Source: a virus (Duplodnaviria > Heunggongvirae > Uroviricota > Caudoviricetes). From it: DNA of 11,763 bases. The stretch is from positions 1-11,763 of IMG/VR virus record IMGVR_UViG_2700989507_000007. One strand, given 5' to 3'. This document shows, piece by piece, positions 1 through 7,466 of the stretch (positions within the stretch are counted from its first letter, which is position 1; every line of letters starts with the position of its first letter). The notes below the pieces were generated by a model. It saw only the letters and a program-made list of their open reading frames with translations. It had not been told where the DNA came from and did not search any database. The translations under genes and the position numbers were made by a program.

Positions 1-170
1 ATGAGCTGATTTTTCCGTCCCTTCGCAGGGCAAACCTGGCGCTGCGCAGGGCGAAAAGTGATGTTCAGAAGTGGGAGCGAGTCTGCGCCGCGCTGCGGGA
101 GCTGAACAAGCACCGGGATATTGTTCGGCAGATTGTCGATTCATCCGGTCGTATTGTGTCGGAAAAGTGA
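1..170 (+). CDS. 3' end of an ORF that starts left of the window (hypothetical phage protein, last ~55 aa)
   Basis: Frame in phase with position 3 stays open to TGA at 168-170; tail translates ...RELNKHRDIVRQIVDSSGRIVSEK. Start is outside the window; family not recognised. Confidence 0.3.
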   Translation, partial: ELIFPSLRRANLALRRAKSDVQKWERVCAALRELNKHRDIVRQIVDSSGRIVSEK

Positions 171-185
171 TTGCCGGAGGCGCTT

Positions 186-578
186 ATGGCAAAAGTATTT
201 ACACCAGAAGAGCGGGAAGAAGTGAAGGCGCGCATTGTGGAATTCGTGCGCCTGAGCGGACGAGAAACTTTTCGACAACTGGCAGATAAAACGGGTGTCA
301 GTAAGACCGCTATTCGTCGTTTATCTGGTGCGCTTGCGGCCAGTGGTGATGTCTGGCTCTCTGGTTGCGGGGTATTTCTATCAGAGCAGGCGTATCGCGT
401 ATGGCGCAAGACACCGGAGAAGGCTGCTGACCCGACACTGATTCGAAAGTTACCTGACGGAGAAATACGTCGTTACAACAGACGGCAGAACATAATTTGT
501 CGTGAGTGCCGCCAGAGCGAAGTTATGCAGCGTGTGCTGGCGTTCTATCGGGGTAATTTTCAGGAGGTGATGGAGTGA
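186..578 (+). CDS. hypothetical phage protein with an HTH-like segment (LADKTGVSKTAIRRL)
   Basis: Track ORF 171..578; preferred start is ATG 186 with GGAGG at 176-180. Stop TGA 576-578 overlaps the next gene's GTG start (GTGA coupling). Confidence 0.55.
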   Translation: MAKVFTPEEREEVKARIVEFVRLSGRETFRQLADKTGVSKTAIRRLSGALAASGDVWLSGCGVFLSEQAYRVWRKTPEKAADPTLIRKLPDGEIRRYNRRQNIICRECRQSEVMQRVLAFYRGNFQEVME

Positions 579-874
579 GGGTGAGGGTTTATATCGCCGG
601 TCCGATGACCGGGTATAAAAATTTCAACCGTGAGGCGTTCAACAAGGCGGAAGAGGAACTGAAACGGGAAGGGCATACAGTCTTAAACCCGGCAGTACTT
701 CCGGACGGGCTGACACAGCCGCACTACATGGATATTTGCATGTCAATGATACGCTGCGTGGATGCGATTTACATGCTGAAAGGCTGGCAGCGGTCGGCAG
801 GCGCTAAGGCAGAACTGGCACTGGCGGAGAAGCTGGGGCATGCAGTTATTTTCCAGGAGGCAAACAGTGAGTAA
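575..874 (+). CDS. DUF4406-like protein (nucleoside 2-deoxyribosyltransferase-like fold), 99 aa
   Basis: Track ORF 575..874; N-terminal VYIAGPMTG motif typical of this family; AGGAGG-like site at 562-567 before GTG 575. Family name is from memory. Confidence 0.55.
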   Translation: MRVRVYIAGPMTGYKNFNREAFNKAEEELKREGHTVLNPAVLPDGLTQPHYMDICMSMIRCVDAIYMLKGWQRSAGAKAELALAEKLGHAVIFQEANSE

Positions 875-1331
875 CCAATGGCGACCAGATATTTGCCCAA
901 TAACCGGACGTGCATTTTTCATGTGGATTGAGCATCCGAAATTGGGAAATGTACCGACGTATGGTGGCCCATTAGACAGTTACACCATTCCAACAAAGGA
1001 CAGCGATGGTGAGTTTTCGTGTGAGCGTTACGATCATGATTTCGGTGGCTGGGTAGAAAGCGAATGTCTAGGGTTATATCTGATTGATGATGAAGAACAA
1101 TGCAGAGTCTACGAACTCAAGGAGCGCGTTAAAGAGCTGGAAGCGCGGGAAGTTCATTTACCGACTCGCTACGGCCTTCGATATGGACATCCGATAAATG
1201 CTGATGAGCGCCACGTCATGATACCTAAAGAAAATGGCTGCTGGATTTATCTGGCTGATTTAGAGCACGTACTACGTGTTGCTGGTATTCGCATCAAAGG
1301 GGAGGAGCATGGAAATCAAACCAGAAGATGA
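867..1331 (+). CDS. hypothetical phage protein (~154 aa), ends ...AGIRIKGEEHGNQTRR
   Basis: Track ORF 840..1331; preferred start GTG 867 with AGGAGG at 855-860 (6-nt spacer), just before the upstream stop at 872-874. Confidence 0.5.
   Translation: MSNQWRPDICPITGRAFFMWIEHPKLGNVPTYGGPLDSYTIPTKDSDGEFSCERYDHDFGGWVESECLGLYLIDDEEQCRVYELKERVKELEAREVHLPTRYGLRYGHPINADERHVMIPKENGCWIYLADLEHVLRVAGIRIKGEEHGNQTRR
1281..1300 (+). repeat. gene-boundary repeat copy 1 (GCTGGTATTCGCATCAAAGG)
   Basis: 19/20 nt identical to 4341-4360; both sit at the 3' end of a gene encoding ...AGIRIKGE, just before the next gene's ATG. Confidence 0.6.
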
Positions 1332-1665
1332 GTTAAGTAATATTGTTTTATTTCCGGTAAAAGAGGATGACCCACGTAATCAGGTTAATTTTCTTTATGA
1401 GCCATCGGAAAGACCATATTGTCATCACGCCTCTGTCCGGGTTGACGAAAAAGAGCGTCAGGTCCGTTGTAAAATCTGCGGTGCAGTTGTGGAGACGTTT
1501 GACTGGATGCTCTCTGTGGCAAAAAGAGAAACCAGACTGGCAGATGATGTAAGGCTCTTGCGCCAGGAGGAGCGGGAAAGGCGAAAAAATATAGAAAAGC
1601 TAATTCAGATTGAGCGTAACGCGAAAGCGCGGATACGCAGGGCGACAAAATCCAGAACTGAATAA
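1309..1665 (+). CDS. hypothetical phage protein with a putative zinc-ribbon (C-H-H ... C-x-x-C) and a basic coiled-coil tail, 118 aa
   Basis: Track ORF 1276..1665; ATG 1309 preceded by a purine-rich AAAGGGGAGGAGC; overlaps the 3' end of the upstream gene. Confidence 0.5.
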   Translation: MEIKPEDELSNIVLFPVKEDDPRNQVNFLYEPSERPYCHHASVRVDEKERQVRCKICGAVVETFDWMLSVAKRETRLADDVRLLRQEERERRKNIEKLIQIERNAKARIRRATKSRTE

Positions 1666-1734
1666 TTAAATTTAGCTCTGTTAAAAATTTAATCCTTAAC
1701 CGGAGGGATTTCTGCACCCTCAGAACATCAGGAG

Positions 1735-1752
1735 GCCGCCCGAAAGGGCGGT
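1735..1752 (+). promoter_or_regulatory. GC-rich hairpin (GCCGCCC-GAAA-GGGCGGT, GNRA-type loop) between a Shine-Dalgarno-like site and the start codon of the next small ORF
   Basis: 7-bp stem with one G-U pair seen directly; CAGGAGG at 1729-1735 and ATG at 1759. Folding would bring the SD to ~6 nt from the ATG. Confidence 0.35.
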
Positions 1753-1758
1753 AGTTAA

Positions 1759-1932
1759 ATGCGAAAGTTTAAAATAATTATTGAAACGGGAATAGCCGGT
1801 GGAGATTTCGAGGATGAATTCGAAGTGGATGATGATGCGACGCCTGATGAAATACATGACGAAGCAAAAGATATTTTCTTTAACTACTGCAATTACTCAT
1901 ATCACGAAATAAAAGACGAAGAGGAGGAATAA
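1759..1932 (+). CDS. small very acidic protein, 57 aa (MRKFKIIIETGIAGGDFEDEFEVDDD...KDEEEE), ~20 D/E residues
   Basis: Not in the track (<60 aa). ATG 1759, TAA 1930-1932; the next ORF starts 2 nt later behind a GAGGAGG site. Confidence 0.4.
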   Translation: MRKFKIIIETGIAGGDFEDEFEVDDDATPDEIHDEAKDIFFNYCNYSYHEIKDEEEE

Positions 1933-1933
1933 A

Positions 1934-2110
1934 ATGGCTGATTTTGGTTCAACTAAATACAGCGTCAGTTTTGAAGAATGGCATGAACTGTTAATGGACT
2001 ATGCAGAGTTACGTGGTGGCAGTGCTGCTGATGCTGAAGCATGGCGTGATGATTATGAAGCAGGGAAAACTGCGGTCGAAGCATATTGTGATGAGTGGGG
2101 CGATGAATGA
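1934..2110 (+). CDS. small acidic protein, 58 aa (MADFGSTKYSVSFEEWHELLMDYAELRGG...CDEWGDE)
   Basis: Not in the track. ATG 1934 with GAGGAGG at 1921-1927; stop TGA 2108-2110 overlaps ATG 2107 of the next gene (ATGA coupling). Confidence 0.4.
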   Translation: MADFGSTKYSVSFEEWHELLMDYAELRGGSAADAEAWRDDYEAGKTAVEAYCDEWGDE

Positions 2111-2395
2111 GCGAGATTGACTATCAGGCGCTGCGTGAAGCAGCAGAGAAAGCAACTAAAGGATGCTACATCGTAGGGCATACATCGGGCAATCAGCATG
2201 GGAATATAACAGGAGTTTTTGTTTGTCAAAAATGGAAAGGAGAACCCGGTGGCGTGATTGCAGAATGTCATGTTAACTGCCTGGTTGAAACAGATGCTCA
2301 GGCTTACGCAAACGCTGAATTTATTGCTGCCTTTAATCCAAATGTTGCGCTGGCGCTTCTGGATGAACGGGAAAGAAACCAGCAATACATCAAAC
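2107..2395 (+). pseudogene. 5' fragment of an Ead/Ea22-like phage gene, interrupted by the IS element after codon ...YIK
   Basis: Track ORF 2107..2463 runs into the IS and ends on IS-derived codons; N-terminus MSEIDYQALREAAEKATKG resembles Ead/Ea22-like proteins (from memory). Confidence 0.55.
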
Positions 2396-2437
2396 TGAAC
2401 CGCCCCGGTTTTCCTGGAGAGTGTTTTATCTGTGAAC

Positions 2438-3325
2438 TCAGGCTGCCAGATCATCGTTTCTGATGGAAGCATAATAAGCTTTTTCTGCTTCTGCCGGAGG
2501 GATATGACCCAGCCTTCCCAGCAATCGTCGATTGTTATACCAGTCCACCCACGTGAGTGTGGCCAGTTCCACTTCTGCACGGTTTTTCCAGCTCTTACGG
2601 TGTATTACCTCCGCTTTGTAAAGACCATTGATGCTCTCCGCCATCGCGTTGTCATACGAGTCACCTGTACTCCCTGTTGATGCCAGCAGTTTTGCTTCTT
2701 TTAGTCGCTCCGTATAGGCCAGTGATACATACTGAGAACCTTTATCACTGTGATGGACTGTGCCGGACGGCCGACGGGCCCACAACGCCTGCTCCAGTGC
2801 ATCCAGCACGAATGTCGTTTCCATAGACGATGAGACTCGCCACCCCACGATACATCCGGCAAACACATCAATGATGAACGCCACATAGACGAAGCCCTGC
2901 CATGTGCTGACGTAAGTAAAATCAGCCACCCACAGCTGGTCAGGACGTTCTGCCACGAACTGACGGTTTACGCGGTCGCCTGCGGAAACGGCTTTCCGGC
3001 TGACGGTAGTACGGACCTTTTTACCCCGGAGAACACCGGCAAGTCCCATAACCGCCATGAGGCGCGCCACTGTACATCTGGCCACCCTGATACCTTCGCG
3101 TAACAACTGGCGCCAGACTTTACGCACACCGTACACCTGATGATTTTCATCGTATACGCGCTGTATCTCTCTCTTCAGCCAGTCATCGCGCTGAGCACGG
3201 GCACTGCGTTTATCAGGATGATGTCGCTGTTGCTGACAGTGGTAATACGTTGACGGGGCAATATGCAGTTCACTGCATACCGGTCCGACCCCGTACTGCT
3301 CACGCAGCTTATCCAGCAGCGGCAT
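2438..3325 (-). CDS. IS3-family transposase OrfB (catalytic domain), 295 aa
   Basis: Track ORF 2438..3325 (-); its ATG overlaps the orfA stop in the -1 frame, the classic IS3 orfAB arrangement. Confidence 0.85.
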   Translation of the reverse strand: MPLLDKLREQYGVGPVCSELHIAPSTYYHCQQQRHHPDKRSARAQRDDWLKREIQRVYDENHQVYGVRKVWRQLLREGIRVARCTVARLMAVMGLAGVLRGKKVRTTVSRKAVSAGDRVNRQFVAERPDQLWVADFTYVSTWQGFVYVAFIIDVFAGCIVGWRVSSSMETTFVLDALEQALWARRPSGTVHHSDKGSQYVSLAYTERLKEAKLLASTGSTGDSYDNAMAESINGLYKAEVIHRKSWKNRAEVELATLTWVDWYNNRRLLGRLGHIPPAEAEKAYYASIRNDDLAA

Positions 3326-3651
3326 TATTTTTTCCAGAGGCGGTCGAACTCCGCCTTCGCAAAATAAGCGGAAGCCTGGCGAAGGATATCGTTACTGCGG
3401 CGCAGTTCACGATTTTCACGTTCCAGCTCTTTCAGACGCTGACGTTCAGCGGTGGTGAGTCCACCATCACCACTCCCGGTATCCCGCTCATGCTGACGAA
3501 CCCACACACGCAGAGTCTCTGGTGTACAGCCAATCTTTGGGGCAATGGAACAAATTGCCGCCCATTGTGAGTCATATTCGCCCTGACTTTCCAGAACCAT
3601 ACGAACTGCCCGTTGACGGACCTCGGGGGAAAAACGTGTATTTTTAGTCAT
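3325..3651 (-). CDS. IS3-family transposase OrfA (HTH plus leucine-zipper part), 108 aa
   Basis: Track ORF 3325..3651 (-), [19 protein letters not shown]...; ends at an A6 slippery run (plus-strand T6 at 3328-3333) where the -1 frameshift into orfB is expected. Confidence 0.85.
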
Positions 3652-3705
3652 CCTGTTTACCTCTTTCTCAGGGAGTTTAGTCTCCAGGATTCCCGGGGCG
3701 GTTCA

Positions 3706-4367
3706 AACGCCGCGACCAGGAGAACGAGGATATTGCGCTAACGGTAGGGAAGCTGCGCGTTGAGCTTGAAGCAGCAAAATCAAAACTCAACGAGCAGCGT
3801 GAATATTACGAGGGAGTAATCGCGGATGGAAGTAAGCGCATAGCAGAACTGGAAAAACAATGCGCCGAATGGGAGCGAAAAGCATTAAGCAACTTTGAAG
3901 AGTGTGCTGCGATGGCTGAACGTATCGAAGAGATGCAGACAAAATCTGCACCAGATTCGTTTGGCATCATCGGTGAAAATATTCGAACACAGGACAATCG
4001 AATAACGTCAGATCCCATGTTTTGTGTGTATCAAAAGCGCGAAATCGTTGTTGATGCTGATTATGACCATGACCGGATTGTCTGGGTTGACGAAGATGGC
4101 AATGAAGCCAATAAACGCCATAGTCGTCGTCTCGAGCTACTTCATGAAAACTTTCGAGAGCCACCAGAAAAATGGCGGCGCGTTGCTGTGAAAGATATTG
4201 ATGAATTCGTTACCTGCTGTTTCACCGAACAGGGTTGTAAAGACTACCTGGCAGTCAATGGTCACAATCTTCGCTTGCCATTTATATATGTAAAAAGCGG
4301 TTTCAGGAACGCTGAATATATCGGCATAAGAAACTGGCTTGCTGGCATTCGCATCAAAGGAGAGTGA
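3706..4367 (+). pseudogene. 3' part of the IS-interrupted Ead/Ea22-like gene
   Basis: Frame is open from the IS junction (codons in phase with 3708) through track ORF 3912..4367, checked codon by codon. Removing the IS and one AAC copy joins 2107-2395 to this in frame (~316 aa). Coiled-coil middle; ends ...NWLAGIRIKGE. Confidence 0.55.
4341..4360 (+). repeat. gene-boundary repeat copy 2 (GCTGGCATTCGCATCAAAGG)
   Basis: See copy 1; followed by ATG 4369. Confidence 0.6.
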
Positions 4368-4368
4368 T

Positions 4369-4884
4369 ATGGCGTTAACACACCGCGAACTCTGTCAGAT
4401 TGCGTACAAGTTCCTTAAGCGCAACGGGTTCAAGGTTTGTTTTCATGACCGCTTTATAGCTGTAACCAGTACCGGAGAACAGCCAGATGCTATGGGATTC
4501 AGAAATTCAGCATCATGCCTGATAGAGGCGAAATGTTCTCGTGCTGACTTGTTGGCAGATAGAAAAAAGCGTTTTCGTAAAAATCCGTCTCTTGGAATGG
4601 GCGACTGGCGATTCTTTATTAGTGAGCCGGGAATTATTTCAATTGAGGATTTACCACCTGGCTGGGGATTACTTCACGTTGTTAACGGAAGAGTACGGAA
4701 AGTACATGGGTGGCCCAAGGGTAATTGCTGTTGGGGTAATCCTGACGATAAGCCATTTACTGGAAATAAGCAGGTTGAATGCGATTACATGTTGTCTGCA
4801 TTAAGGCGCATGGAGTTGAGAGGGCACCTTAATGAAATATATGACGGTGTAATTGTTAATAAGAAAGAAGGAAACGCGGCATGA
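4369..4884 (+). CDS. hypothetical phage protein, 171 aa; possible PD-(D/E)XK nuclease fold
   Basis: Track ORF 4339..4884; preferred ATG 4369 with GGAG upstream. Motif GEQPD-x13-EAK seen in the translation. Confidence 0.5.
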
Positions 4885-5225
4885 CCACTATTACCAGAGA
4901 GCAGTTAATAGCTCACGCAGAGGAGACTATTGAAGCACAGAGACTGTGTATACCGGGCACAATCGACCATGACATCATCCGCACATATAAGATGGATATT
5001 GCTGTTCTGGAAATCGCACTGGCATCGCTGGCAGCAGAGCCAGCCGGTAAATTGCATGAATACAAACCAGTGGGGTATCAGCGTCTGGTCGACGAGTTAA
5101 CTATGCAGGTAAAGCAGTTAGCCTGGCAACTGAGGAAAGCGAAGCCGGACTGCAAACTGCCGGATAAGGCGATGGACTACCTGGAGCGAAACGGACTGAC
5201 AAGCGTGGAGGATGTTTTACGATGA
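4881..5225 (+). CDS. hypothetical phage protein, 114 aa
   Basis: Track ORF 4881..5225; ATG overlaps the upstream stop (ATGA). Confidence 0.5.
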
Positions 5226-5305
5226 CCAGGCCTGAAGCATTCACAACGGTAGGAATTGCGATGGCGGTGGCGCTGGTGGTGTATTCGATTTGCCGCTGGG
5301 GATAA
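5222..5305 (+). CDS. possible small hydrophobic peptide, 27 aa ([27 protein letters not shown])
   Basis: Not in the track. ATG 5222 overlaps the upstream stop; one predicted membrane-spanning stretch. Weak support. Confidence 0.2.
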
Positions 5306-5315
5306 ATCGCCGAAA

Positions 5316-5349
5316 AAAGATCCCGACACAAACATGAGCCGGGATCTTT
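5316..5349. terminator. bidirectional rho-independent terminator between convergent transcription units
   Basis: 10-bp perfect stem AAAGATCCCG / CGGGATCTTT with a 14-nt loop; A-run upstream and T-rich tract downstream, so it carries a U-tract on either strand. Confidence 0.55.
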
Positions 5350-5432
5350 GATTTATATAGCCTACGAATCCGCCAGTAAGAGAGGGGGGGGCGGACGGTT
5401 AATTCTAACACCGGAATGATGTGGGTAAAAGT

Positions 5433-5732
5433 TTATAAGAAATCGGTTTCATAACTTTGCCCACCATGATAGATACCGACAATAAAGACTTTTCTGCCAT
5501 CAACGGCAAAAGCAATAATCGTTCTGTGGCGGAAATGAGTTACCCGCATCCCCTGGCGAATATCATCGCGTTTATTGCCCCGATGCGGGAATGTAGAAAA
5601 CCCATCAAGATAATCAAGAAGCGCATTGGCAAAATTGTCAGCAATGACGTTCCCTGCTTTCTCCGTTATATATCTGTGCAGGTTGATTATTTGTTCTTCG
5701 GCCTCAGGAGTAATGATGACTTCATATGTCAT
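5433..5732 (-). CDS. parE: ParE/RelE-family type II toxin, 99 aa
   Basis: Track ORF 5433..5732 (-); size and sequence character of ParE-like toxins; directly downstream of an RHH antitoxin gene on the same strand. Confidence 0.75.
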   Translation of the reverse strand: MTYEVIITPEAEEQIINLHRYITEKAGNVIADNFANALLDYLDGFSTFPHRGNKRDDIRQGMRVTHFRHRTIIAFAVDGRKVFIVGIYHGGQSYETDFL

Positions 5733-5737
5733 GCAGA

Positions 5738-5995
5738 TTACTTCCCGGATCGAATCGCGGCGCGAACCTGTGAAATGGAGCGTCCGTTGTTTGGGTTTTC
5801 GCGGATAGAATCAAGAGAGGGGGCGGCTGAATGCGTTAACCACGCTTCGATTGCTTTATCGCGCTCATTCAGTGCGCGAAGCCCTTCACGAATGACCTCG
5901 CTTTCTGAAGCATAGGCACCGGAAGCCACACGGGCGCGCACCATGTCAGCCATTTCGTTAGTTAATGTAATGCTGAATTGTTGGGTTGTACGCAT
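5738..5995 (-). CDS. parD: ParD-type (ribbon-helix-helix) antitoxin, ~85 aa
   Basis: Inside track ORF 5738..6058 (-); preferred start is the internal ATG (reverse complement of 5993-5995) with GAGG 6 nt upstream. Contains ASESEVIREGLRAL, typical of ParD/CopG antitoxins. Stop lies 5 nt before the parE start. Confidence 0.7.
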   Translation of the reverse strand: MRTTQQFSITLTNEMADMVRARVASGAYASESEVIREGLRALNERDKAIEAWLTHSAAPSLDSIRENPNNGRSISQVRAAIRSGK

Positions 5996-6130
5996 GGTAA
6001 ACCTCACGGAGTAGGATAGAACACCATTCGATGATAGCACGTTGCCTGTTGACGACAACAGAAATCAGAGACAATATTGCCGCACGCCAGCTTGAACAAC
6101 TGGCACCTGCTGCGCCAGCAGAGAAAACCG

Positions 6131-6403
6131 ATGGCGCACAATACCAAACATCACAATTCTGATATCGCCCCTGCCAGCAGGCAAGGGCGGTGTTCTCACA
6201 CATTCAAATATGACTGGTATCAGCACGATCCCTGCACTGAAGAACAGGCCGAATGGCTGATTCATAACTACCGCAGACGTGGGTATGAGTTTAAGAAAGC
6301 CCTTAGCCTCGACTACCGTCACTGGATAATCTACGTCAGGCTCCTTTATTCCGAACGCCCGCCGCGTCCGTCCCGCACATTCCAGCAACGCATCTGGAGG
6401 TAA
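6131..6403 (+). CDS. hypothetical protein, ~90 aa
   Basis: Inside track ORF 6077..6403; ends immediately before the DUF968 gene start. Weak RBS; coding status uncertain. Confidence 0.3.
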   Translation: MAHNTKHHNSDIAPASRQGRCSHTFKYDWYQHDPCTEEQAEWLIHNYRRRGYEFKKALSLDYRHWIIYVRLLYSERPPRPSRTFQQRIWR

Positions 6404-6404
6404 C

Positions 6405-7454
6405 GTGCGGGTATTACTTCGACCTGTTCTGGTACCGGAACTCGGGCTGGTGATCGTTAAGCCGGGCCGTGAATCCATGCCGGTATTCCACAATACCCGG
6501 GTACTGGTGGAGCCGGAACCGAAAAGCATGCGTAATCTGCCGTCCGGCATCGTCCCTGCCGTTCGCCAGCCGCTAGTGGAAGACAAAACATTGCTGCCGT
6601 TTTTCAGTAACGCTCGGGTGATTCGTGCTGCTGGTGGCGCTGGCGCATTGTCTGACTGGTTACTGCGCCATGTTAAATCCTGCCAGTGGCCACACGGCGA
6701 TTATCATCACAGTGAAACCGTTATTCACCGTTATGGTACCGGCGCAATGGTGTTGTGCTGGCACTGCGACAACCAGCTGCGTGACCAGACATCCGAATCA
6801 CTCGAGCAACTTGCTCATCAAAACCTGTCAGCATGGATGATTGACGTCATCGGTCACGCAATATGCGGTACGCAGGAGCGTGAATTATCTCTGGCTGAAT
6901 TATCCTGGTGGGCGGTCCGCAATCAGGTGGCGGACGCGCTACCGGAAGCGGTATTACGTCGTTCGCTGGGGTTGCGTGCGGAAAAAATCCGCTCAGTGTA
7001 CCGTGAAAGCGACATCGTACCGGGAGAGCAGACCGCCACCAGCATACTGAAGCAGCGCACAAAAAATATTGCGCTACCGCCTCACACCCACCAGCAACAG
7101 AACCCACCACAGGAAAAGACGGTGGTCAGCATTGCCGTTGATCCGGAGTCTCCGGAATCCTTCATGAAACGACCTAAACGTCGCCGCTGGGTAAATGAGA
7201 AATACACACGCTGGGTAAAGACACAGCCGTGTGCGTGTTGTGGTAAGCCAGCGGACGATCCTCATCATCTGATTGGTCATGGTCAGGGTGGAATGGGAAC
7301 AAAATCCCACGATATTTTCACGCTACCGCTGTGTCGGGAGCATCACAACGAGCTTCATGCGGATCCGCTGGCGTTCGAAGAAAAGCATGGTTCCCAGGTT
7401 GATTTAATTTTTCGTTTTCTTGATCACGCCTTTGCGACTGGCGTGCTCGGGTAA
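6405..7454 (+). CDS. DUF968-family prophage protein (YdfU-like) with a C-terminal Cys/His HNH-like motif, 349 aa
   Basis: Track ORF 6405..7454; GTG start with GGAGG at 6396-6400. C-terminal CACCG...DDPHHLIGHG...CREHHNELH. Sits directly upstream of rusA, as in known prophages. Confidence 0.7.
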   Translation: MRVLLRPVLVPELGLVIVKPGRESMPVFHNTRVLVEPEPKSMRNLPSGIVPAVRQPLVEDKTLLPFFSNARVIRAAGGAGALSDWLLRHVKSCQWPHGDYHHSETVIHRYGTGAMVLCWHCDNQLRDQTSESLEQLAHQNLSAWMIDVIGHAICGTQERELSLAELSWWAVRNQVADALPEAVLRRSLGLRAEKIRSVYRESDIVPGEQTATSILKQRTKNIALPPHTHQQQNPPQEKTVVSIAVDPESPESFMKRPKRRRWVNEKYTRWVKTQPCACCGKPADDPHHLIGHGQGGMGTKSHDIFTLPLCREHHNELHADPLAFEEKHGSQVDLIFRFLDHAFATGVLG

Positions 7455-7466
7455 AAGAGGTGACTG

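Follow-up and report, generated by a model that had tools for sequence, protein, structure and literature searches.

A conserved 3' block of ea22-family genes as a probable exchange point between gene modules of lambdoid prophages

Results

Two gene junctions of a lambdoid prophage carry the same short block

We analyzed 11,763 nt of a Caudoviricetes virus (IMG/VR record IMGVR_UViG_2700989507_000007, positions 1 to 11,763; this whole stretch is referred to as the window), which belong to a lambdoid prophage of the enterohemorrhagic Escherichia coli (EHEC) type and correspond to its replication-to-Q region. Two gene junctions in the window carry copies of one short repeat, which is the conserved 3' tail of the lambda ea22 gene family. 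We consider it probable that this block serves at once as the tail of the upstream gene product, as the Shine-Dalgarno sequence of the next gene and as a crossover point for module shuffling. The features at the two junctions are listed here in order along the window (ORF, open reading frame):

867 to 1331, plus strand: gene 1, given as 154 amino acids by RefSeq in a relative; its longest ORF begins at 840
1134 to 1154, plus strand: intragenic linker ELEAREV in gene 1 (KRIAELE in Ea22-like genes)
1279 to 1304, plus strand: junction block copy 1, TTGCTGGTATTCGCATCAAAGGGGAG; breakpoints at 1277-1281
1309 to 1665, plus strand: downstream gene R1, 118 amino acids, phrog_1621, weak zinc-ribbon match
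2107 to 2395, plus strand: 5' part of an ead/Ea22-like gene (gene 2), Pfam PF13935, E 1.6e-27; cut by IS629
2396 to 3705, minus strand: IS629 (IS3 family), 1310 bp, with terminal inverted repeats and target duplication AAC
3709 to 4367, plus strand: 3' part of the ead/Ea22-like gene, with the coiled-coil end, the ...NAEYIGIRNWL C-terminal domain and the tail
3840 to 3854, plus strand: KRIAELE linker inside this 3' part
4339 to 4364, plus strand: junction block copy 2, TTGCTGGCATTCGCATCAAAGGAGAG; followed by TGA at 4365-4367, one T and ATG 4369
4369 to 4884, plus strand: downstream gene R3, 171 amino acids, phrog_9263/631

The window has two exact matches to TTGCTGGYATTCGCATCAAAGG, both on the plus strand (1279-1300 and 4339-4360), and none of 200 dinucleotide-preserving shuffles contained any match. 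In a repeat search the full length of the repeat proved to be 26 nt (1279-1304 and 4339-4364); the two copies agree at 24 of these 26 positions, with a longest uninterrupted identity of 14 nt. An initial annotation of the sequence had placed a near-identical boundary sequence at these two module junctions, each time just before the next gene start. Both statements hold (the next genes start with ATG at 1309 and 4369), apart from the start coordinates of the repeat, which were one base off and are 1279 and 4339. The same annotation had both upstream genes ending in AGIRIKGE. This is true of the second, in which copy 2 encodes (L)AGIRIKGE directly followed by the stop codon, with AAGGAG located 6-7 nt 5' of ATG 4369. 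Copy 1 encodes (V)AGIRIKGE inside gene 1, the frame of which runs eight codons beyond the motif (...VAGIRIKGEEHGNQTRR, stop at 1331) and overlaps R1 (ATG 1309) by 23 nt; GGGGAGGAG in this copy is the predicted Shine-Dalgarno sequence for ATG 1309.

No similarity between the two ORFs beyond the tail survived a BLASTP comparison, the reported match (E = 0.007) resting on the eight identical tail residues, and the 300 nt left of each copy showed no homology when aligned to each other. No Rfam family matched at either copy, and no RNA structure emerged when both contexts and the 37-nt consensus described below were folded (z-scores from -0.13 to +0.77). With no Rfam match and z-scores near 0, a reading as RNA element was rejected. 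We found no promoter or terminator at the block. A Chi-like site was dropped as unsupported, as GCTGGTAT or GCTGGCAT agrees with Chi (GCTGGTGG) at 5-6 of 8 positions.

The block is the 3' tail of the ea22 gene family

Lambda Ea22 also ends in AGIRIKGE (MMSDAGIRIKGE or ...YLHMMSDAGIRIKGE before the stop), encoded by GCTGGCATTCGCATCAAAGGAGAGTGA, and its nucleotides match the repeat; the repeat is thus the conserved 3' tail of the lambda ea22 gene family. The block core comprises about 24 nt, GCTGGCATTCGCATCAAAGGAGAG, and is often extended to CGCGCC...TGAKATG, about 37 nt. A GIRI-type tail is carried by 37 of 42 distinct ends of genes with an Ea22 coiled-coil core, a sample that consists of Ea22-core genes in loci retrieved for other searches and is partly biased toward neighbors of R3. 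These tails read GIRIKGE after A, T or P (22 ends), GIRI(K/N)GGE (11), GIRIKGE extended by EHGNKTRx (2), GIRIKGG (1) and GIRIK cut by a premature stop (1). Of the other five ends, two read ADIRIKGE and one NIGIKGE, one has the block in frameshifted form and one has an unrelated tail. A homology search with the intact Ea22-like protein gave at least 8000 hits, those listed being close relatives.

Ea22 genes were described as mosaics of a common N-terminal and coiled-coil part and unrelated C-terminal domains (PMC10834534). Despite these unrelated domains, all Ea22 proteins of lambda and Shiga toxin (Stx) phages end in K/R-G-E, a '+GE' motif whose significance was given as unknown (Dydecka et al. 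2020, PMC7093339). This motif is the same element, reported there as three residues in four proteins, while it spans 8-12 residues or 24-37 nt here and occurs in at least 22 left contexts including non-Ea22 genes. In the window, gene 2 ends in KGE and gene 1 has KGE followed by eight more codons. The structure of the lambda Ea22 C-terminal domain was determined by nuclear magnetic resonance, and the AlphaFold helix alpha-2 of lambda Ea22 extends "implausibly beyond the domain" (PMC10834534); by our own reading of that work, the lambda tail lies beyond the last helix of the folded domain. A pro-lysogenic phenotype and tetramerization have been reported for Ea22. A sequence search of the PDB returned no solved relative of the window's Ea22-like protein.

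Gene 2 has the N-terminal domain, coiled coil and swappable C-terminal domain of the lambda Ea22/P22 Ead family (PF13935). Its 2107-2463 fragment matched Pfam Ead_Ea22 with 97.2 bits (cut-off 27, E 1.6e-27), and its intact orthologue is annotated as ead/Ea22-like. Gene 1 had no match in Pfam and lacks the N-terminal Ead_Ea22 domain, and it matches phrog_250 over residues 77-147 only (E 8.7e-18). It is laid out as an NQWRPDICP... module, the ELEAREV linker, the ...HVMIPKENGCWIYLADLEHVLRV C-terminal domain and the tail; the NQWRPDICP... module is the middle part of Ea22-like proteins in other phages (left-flank type L6). Gene 1 is best described as an Ea22-family derivative lacking the N-terminal domain and not as a full member. 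Since both genes match phrog_250 and gene 1 shares modules with Ea22-like proteins, both copies of the block sit in genes of one mosaic family, and the window has two copies because it has two such genes. The initial description of "otherwise different genes" is therefore accurate for BLASTP similarity, which is limited to the tail, but not for family membership. In lambda and phage ArgO145 the corresponding genes belong to the exo-xis region, whereas both genes of the window lie in the rightward replication-nin region.

The KRIAELE/ELEAREV linker forms the left edge of the variable C-terminal-domain cassette, and the block bounds the other side. At least eight different C-terminal domains were found joined by a (K)RIAELE/ELEAREV linker to several coiled-coil contexts (loci L005-L124). 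Additionally, upstream of R3 homologues (loci L205-L284), a second conserved tail of about 50 nt, ...SAAQNRWKNHLRTKGE before the stop, is attached to several small ORFs that are unrelated to one another; it, too, ends in AAAGGAGAGTGAKATG. Its LRT-KGE resembles the Yersinia tail LRT-AGIRI-KGE minus AGIRI.

Mosaic breakpoints coincide with the block

Many matches of phages and genomes to the window in BLAST searches begin at 1277-1281. The starts of high-scoring segment pairs peaked at 1276-1300 (98 starts) and 4326-4350 (83 starts), with a secondary peak at 1126-1150 (36 starts), at the ELEAREV linker. Strain C325 is 98.0% identical to window positions 1277-2395 and 99.7% identical to 3703-11763; left of 1277, the DUF977 gene alone can be aligned (77.6% identity), and the DUF4406 gene and gene 1 are absent. 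Strain RM13322 showed the same pattern, starting from 1281. The motif therefore coincides with mosaic breakpoints, as the initial annotation had anticipated.

In phage ArgO145, the left flank of copy 2 (3703-4364) is joined to the right flank of copy 1 (1279-1709) via one shared 26-nt block, which is the reciprocal combination of the window's two junctions. The combination of the copy 1 left flank with the copy 2 right flank was found among the loci anchored on R3 (see below), and all four combinations of left types L2 and L3 with right types R1 and R3 exist. ArgO145 (locus L004) carries R1, DUF7167, Ea22-like and other small genes in its leftward early arm, where this run of small genes is part of the accessory genes that precede the antirepressor and DUF1627 genes. 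The rightward replication-nin position in the window and the leftward arm position in ArgO145 together indicate that cassettes move between the two early operons.

Unrelated modules are joined through the block across prophages

Scanning IMG/VR with the peptide-level pattern GCNGGNATHCGNATHAARGGNGAR retrieved at least 120 stretches. At the 120 junctions listed with full flanks, the 150-nt left flanks fell into 22 clusters and the 150-nt right flanks into 28, in 55 combinations. Those positions of the block that the pattern left free were still 76-98% conserved among the IMG/VR junctions listed, wobble positions included. On the left, conservation continued for about 6 nt (CGCGCC), and on the right for 7 nt (TGAKATG); outside roughly -6 to +30 it was at background level. 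Across 1324 junction pairs that differ on both sides, the median shared block was 27 nt (interquartile range 24-33), and homology was lost within 0-9 nt of the core in most of them.

Two further searches were anchored on homologues of the downstream genes R1 and R3 and were not selected on the motif. The block (at most two mismatches) was present in the 60 nt before the start of 78 of 80 R1 homologues and of 35 of 80 R3 homologues in IMG/VR, in both cases behind varied left flanks; most of the other R3 homologues are preceded by a second conserved tail, ...NRWKNHLRTKGE before the stop. In other phages, at least seven different left-flank types are joined to R1, each time through the block.

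Among 5426 complete E. coli genomes, the 37-nt consensus occurred at 6795 places in 3087 genomes (57%), with a median of 2 and a maximum of 11 per genome, and the genomic matches typically span the boundary between an "ead/Ea22-like family protein" and a "hypothetical protein". Of the 6795 places, 439 are on E. coli plasmids of about 97-106 kb beside ead/Ea22-like genes (e.g., NZ_CP009051.1, 84197-84233); these plasmids may be phage-plasmids.

A scan of bacterial contigs yielded mostly noise, namely short lambda-identical contigs and matches by chance in unrelated phyla; the real matches were confined to Escherichia, Shigella and Yersinia. The lambda-identical contigs, about 40 in number and 0.3-1.7 kb long, all correspond to the ea22 region and come from assemblies of unrelated bacteria, including Streptococcus, Prevotella, Streptomyces, Bradyrhizobium and Piscirickettsia (e.g., L289, L296, L313, L315, L322, L327 and L364). 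Most likely they represent lambda DNA contamination or spike-in in public assemblies.

The commonest left type, L1 (26 of the 120 junctions listed), holds no real gene but a 27-codon mini-ORF, VSEISYQASITAGIRIKGEEHGNKTRR, whose GTG overlaps the stop codon of the DUF977 gene and whose end lies inside the next gene (locus L002, 2473-2550). In some variants of this mini-ORF a 1-nt deletion breaks the frame and the block is retained. The small PHROGs 37408 and 19884 match just the tail. At one locus, DUF977 is read through into the tail, giving a product of 167 amino acids. In another single case, an ORF of 169 amino acids of the HNH/AP2 endonuclease type is fused in frame to the tail (...HMNHGVAGIRIKGE before the stop; locus L119, junction 1581 on the minus strand); it could be a homing endonuclease gene inserted beside the block.

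The block combines a predicted translation start signal with a conserved peptide

Within the last codons of the block, AAA-GGA-GAG, the sequence AAGGAG precedes the start codon (ATG or GTG) of many different downstream genes by 6-7 nt, and stop and start are adjacent or overlap at the block junctions. Variant tails alter the peptide yet retain a Shine-Dalgarno sequence, as in GGAGGTGAGTAATG and AAGGAGAATTCGTAATG: ...GGAGGTGAG TAATG yields (K/N)GGE and ...AAGGAGAATTCG TAATG yields KENS before the stop. From this arrangement we infer that ribosomes bind at AAAGGAGAG to translate the next gene. In the simplest reading, the '+GE' motif is likely explained by the Shine-Dalgarno sequence of the next gene. 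The tail ...GCGCACTAAAGGAGAGTGATATG before R3 homologues was considered as a non-coding instance of this Shine-Dalgarno sequence and rejected, since it is in frame as ...NRWKNHLRTKGE (...LRTKGE before the stop).

The block version of Yersinia phages reads CTCCGCACT GCCGGTATTCGAATCAAGGGAGAG AGTGAATGA. Because a peptide-level scan is biased toward synonymous variants, we retrieved the Yersinia-type block again by its flanks alone, and 46 of the 50 blocks so obtained encode AGIRIKGE. Relative to the E. coli consensus, the Yersinia version has four changes, all of them synonymous (P about 0.004 for 4 of 4 by our own calculation from codon degeneracy, about 25% of single changes being synonymous). 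The flanks in the Yersinia pool reassort likewise. The GIRI(K/N)GGE variant has two further synonymous changes within GIRI. As the three nucleotide versions differ in the GIRI codons by synonymous changes only, the GIRI peptide appears to be under purifying selection. Given its coding tail and its predicted ribosome-binding site, the block would not be purely a "linker" at the DNA level.

IS629 and further features of the window

The initial annotation had listed 3912-4367 as a gene of its own. This ORF is merely the 3' part of the ead/Ea22-like gene, which is 948 nt long, starts at 2107 and is split by IS629; removal of IS629 and of one AAC restores 100% identity to the intact gene of E. coli 2013C-3342. 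The terminal inverted repeats of IS629 (2396-2420 and 3681-3705) are 25 nt long and 88% complementary, and its 3-bp target duplication, AAC, is located at 2393-2395 and 3706-3708. On the minus strand it encodes transposase ORFs of 108 and 295 amino acids and contains an ALIL frameshift pseudoknot (3254-3370, 120.9 bits). Matching phage records annotate the element as IS629. The insertion is recent, since the closest genomes (2013C-3342 and C325) do not have it.

Further genes of the window encode DUF977, DUF4406, several small ORFs, DUF968, RusA, DUF1133, a DNA methylase and TerB. A RelE/ParE toxin gene (5433-5732) and a ParD antitoxin gene (about 5738-5995) lie midway along the rightward early operon but on the other strand, a pair that is annotated as such in the related loci L001-L003. 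Two tRNAs are located at 10059-10131 and 10215-10288. Rfam matches were obtained for the small RNA STnc100 (11060-11252, plus strand, 145.8 bits) and, back to back with it, for the prophage-encoded anti-GcvB small RNA AgvB (11253-11314, minus strand, 96.5 bits).

Discussion

We propose that the block would act at the protein, the translation and the DNA level. It would encode an (A/T)GIRIKGE tail attached to many unrelated C-terminal domains, and its last three codons would provide a strong Shine-Dalgarno sequence for whichever gene follows, so that the downstream gene would be translated from signals inside the tail of the upstream gene. As the only sequence common to otherwise unrelated modules on either side, it would serve as a scarless crossover point between left modules (Ea22 C-terminal domains, other genes and remnants) and no fewer than 28 different accessory genes as right modules. 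Modules would be reassorted between lambdoid prophages and, through unequal exchange of one copy with another, inside a single genome as well. The breakpoints and the reassortment of flanks favor exchange at a boundary sequence, as first suggested in the initial annotation, and the pattern of joints suggests that the crossovers occur inside the block by homologous recombination. The near-invariant wobble positions across unrelated flanks in the E. coli pool fit repeated exchange through the block. Minimal pairing segments of 23-27 bp for Red-beta and 31-34 bp for RecA have been reported (PMC3945230); the length of the block matches the former and approaches the latter.

Several points weigh against this proposal. 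Scarless exchange leaves no trace, so the location of the crossover is deduced from the lack of other homology. The uninterrupted identity between the two copies in the window (14 nt) falls short of the minimal pairing segment, so that they would be poor partners for each other, while consensus copies elsewhere would be better ones. The initial annotation had raised independent variation of the flanking modules: the 22 left and 28 right types do occur in 55 combinations, but left and right types are associated and do not assort freely (L1 with R1 19 times, L2 with R1 16 times). The motif-based sample was ascertained on the peptide pattern, and IMG/VR is rich in near-identical prophages, so that the counts do not represent independent events. 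Because the second conserved tail is in frame, conservation of the Shine-Dalgarno sequence is not separated from coding constraint. Lambda itself has no gene start right after the tail, ea8.5 being 190 nt away, and a ribosome-binding role is thus not universal. Finally, divergence restricted to synonymous changes implies that the block is not kept for recombination alone, and recombination could be a by-product.

One rival explanation is common descent combined with selection, in which illegitimate recombination would occur anywhere and only those joints would survive that keep the tail and the translation start (the Juhala/Hendrix model). The block would then be a constraint on the location of joints and not a crossover site. 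This is the mainstream alternative in the literature (PMC3233612), and it is in line with the apparent selection on the peptide, whose divergence between Escherichia and Yersinia is synonymous only, with the canonical Shine-Dalgarno sequence and start within the block, and with the fusion of unrelated genes (HNH/AP2 endonuclease, DUF977) to the tail, as expected if upstream inserts must keep it. However, selection acting on random joints would be expected to leave scars and spacing that varies, whereas among the junctions listed the 22 left and 28 right types join within the same few nucleotides and wobble positions, too, are 76-98% identical, the breaks of very recent events (flanks 99.7% identical) fall exactly at the block, and the block reaches the minimal pairing length of Red-beta. 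We therefore regard this explanation as rather unlikely, though it deserves consideration. A translated cis-acting coupling element, in which the nascent peptide or its translation controls termination and re-initiation at the next gene, would explain why the tail is kept on 27-codon mini-ORFs (26 of the 120 junctions listed) and on foreign genes, why PHROGs 37408 and 19884 match the tail alone and why the peptide is conserved at a synonymous-only cost. We judge it highly improbable, as the block persists in several mini-ORF variants in which a 1-nt deletion puts the tail out of frame, and as lambda keeps the tail without an adjacent downstream gene.

The idea that the two copies mark where a longer duplicated segment ends, as the initial annotation had considered, or that they represent a chance or low-complexity match, can practically be dismissed. 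Both genes belong to the mosaic family phrog_250, and BLASTP hinted at a weak similarity (E.GC..YLA...H.LR), 25 residues before the tail, in an alignment that spans a 21-residue gap. Nucleotide identity in the window is nevertheless confined to the 26 nt, none of the 200 shuffles matched, the BLASTP value (E = 0.007) rests on the eight tail residues, the 300-nt left flanks share no homology, and hundreds of loci have this block between flanks that are unrelated, with a median shared length of 27 nt across the 1324 pairs. A more far-reaching variant of exchange at the block is that the tail block and the KRIAELE linker form a selected, portable "exchange and expression adaptor", which would turn the ea22 locus into an integrase-free site of cassette capture and shuffling. 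Two short coding linkers would bracket the variable C-terminal-domain cassette, Red/RecT-type annealing proteins would carry out the shuffling, and the terminal linker would give any gene landing downstream a ribosome-binding site and a start; the peptide would be kept because the adaptor must be translated (coupling), and not for a role of the tail in Ea22. We consider this variant unlikely. In a weaker form of it, given the HNH/AP2 endonuclease fusion, the block may also be a homing target.

Returning to exchange through the block as the favored explanation, several known systems offer points of comparison. The modular theory of phage evolution is said to go back to Susskind and Botstein (1978), and boundary or linker sequences were reportedly described for phage HK620 by Clark et al. 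(2001). Conserved boundary sequences have been proposed as targets of homologous recombination in lambdoid phages (PMC3233612). The block shares with them a short conserved site at a gene boundary, non-homologous flanks that reassort and the proposed role as recombination target; the conserved island of 24-37 nt, the varying combinations of flanks and the breakpoints at the block were all observed here. It differs in that it codes for the C-terminal tail of one protein family, with synonymous differences only between genera, and, as predicted, supplies the ribosome-binding site of the next gene. We conclude that the block is a well-documented instance of this already proposed kind. Polymorphic toxin cassettes bear demarcation motifs such as VENN in CdiA and PxxxxDPxGL in Rhs, and there, too, a short coding motif borders a variable C-terminal domain and anchors cassette exchange. 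In contrast to these cassettes, the block junctions are not known to involve toxin-immunity pairing, the modules reassort, and the motif follows the variable domain instead of preceding it. At translationally coupled junctions, the Shine-Dalgarno sequence lies in the last codons of the upstream gene and stop and start overlap as TGATATG, TAATG or ATGA. The block junctions resemble these, with AAGGAG 6-7 nt before the ATG and adjacent or overlapping stop and start, but ordinary coupled junctions belong to one gene pair each, whereas this block is common to dozens of unrelated pairs.

For annotation, these junctions are a source of error, since gene calling easily goes wrong for ORFs beside the block, as with the IS-split gene, the mini-ORFs and fusions by read-through (e.g., DUF977-tail). 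For the Ea22 family, the '+GE' motif, listed as unexplained in the literature, would gain a simple reading as Shine-Dalgarno sequence, and the conserved GIRI peptide is flagged as a feature beyond '+GE'. Whether phage mosaicism arises by exchange at short boundary sequences or by random illegitimate joining followed by selection has been debated for decades (PMC3233612). Since the length of the block matches the minimal pairing segment of Red-beta, the model is directly testable with lambda genetics. Clear, quantifiable examples of boundary-sequence exchange are few, and the block would supply one in lambda and in more than half of the complete E. coli genomes, EHEC and Stx prophages included.

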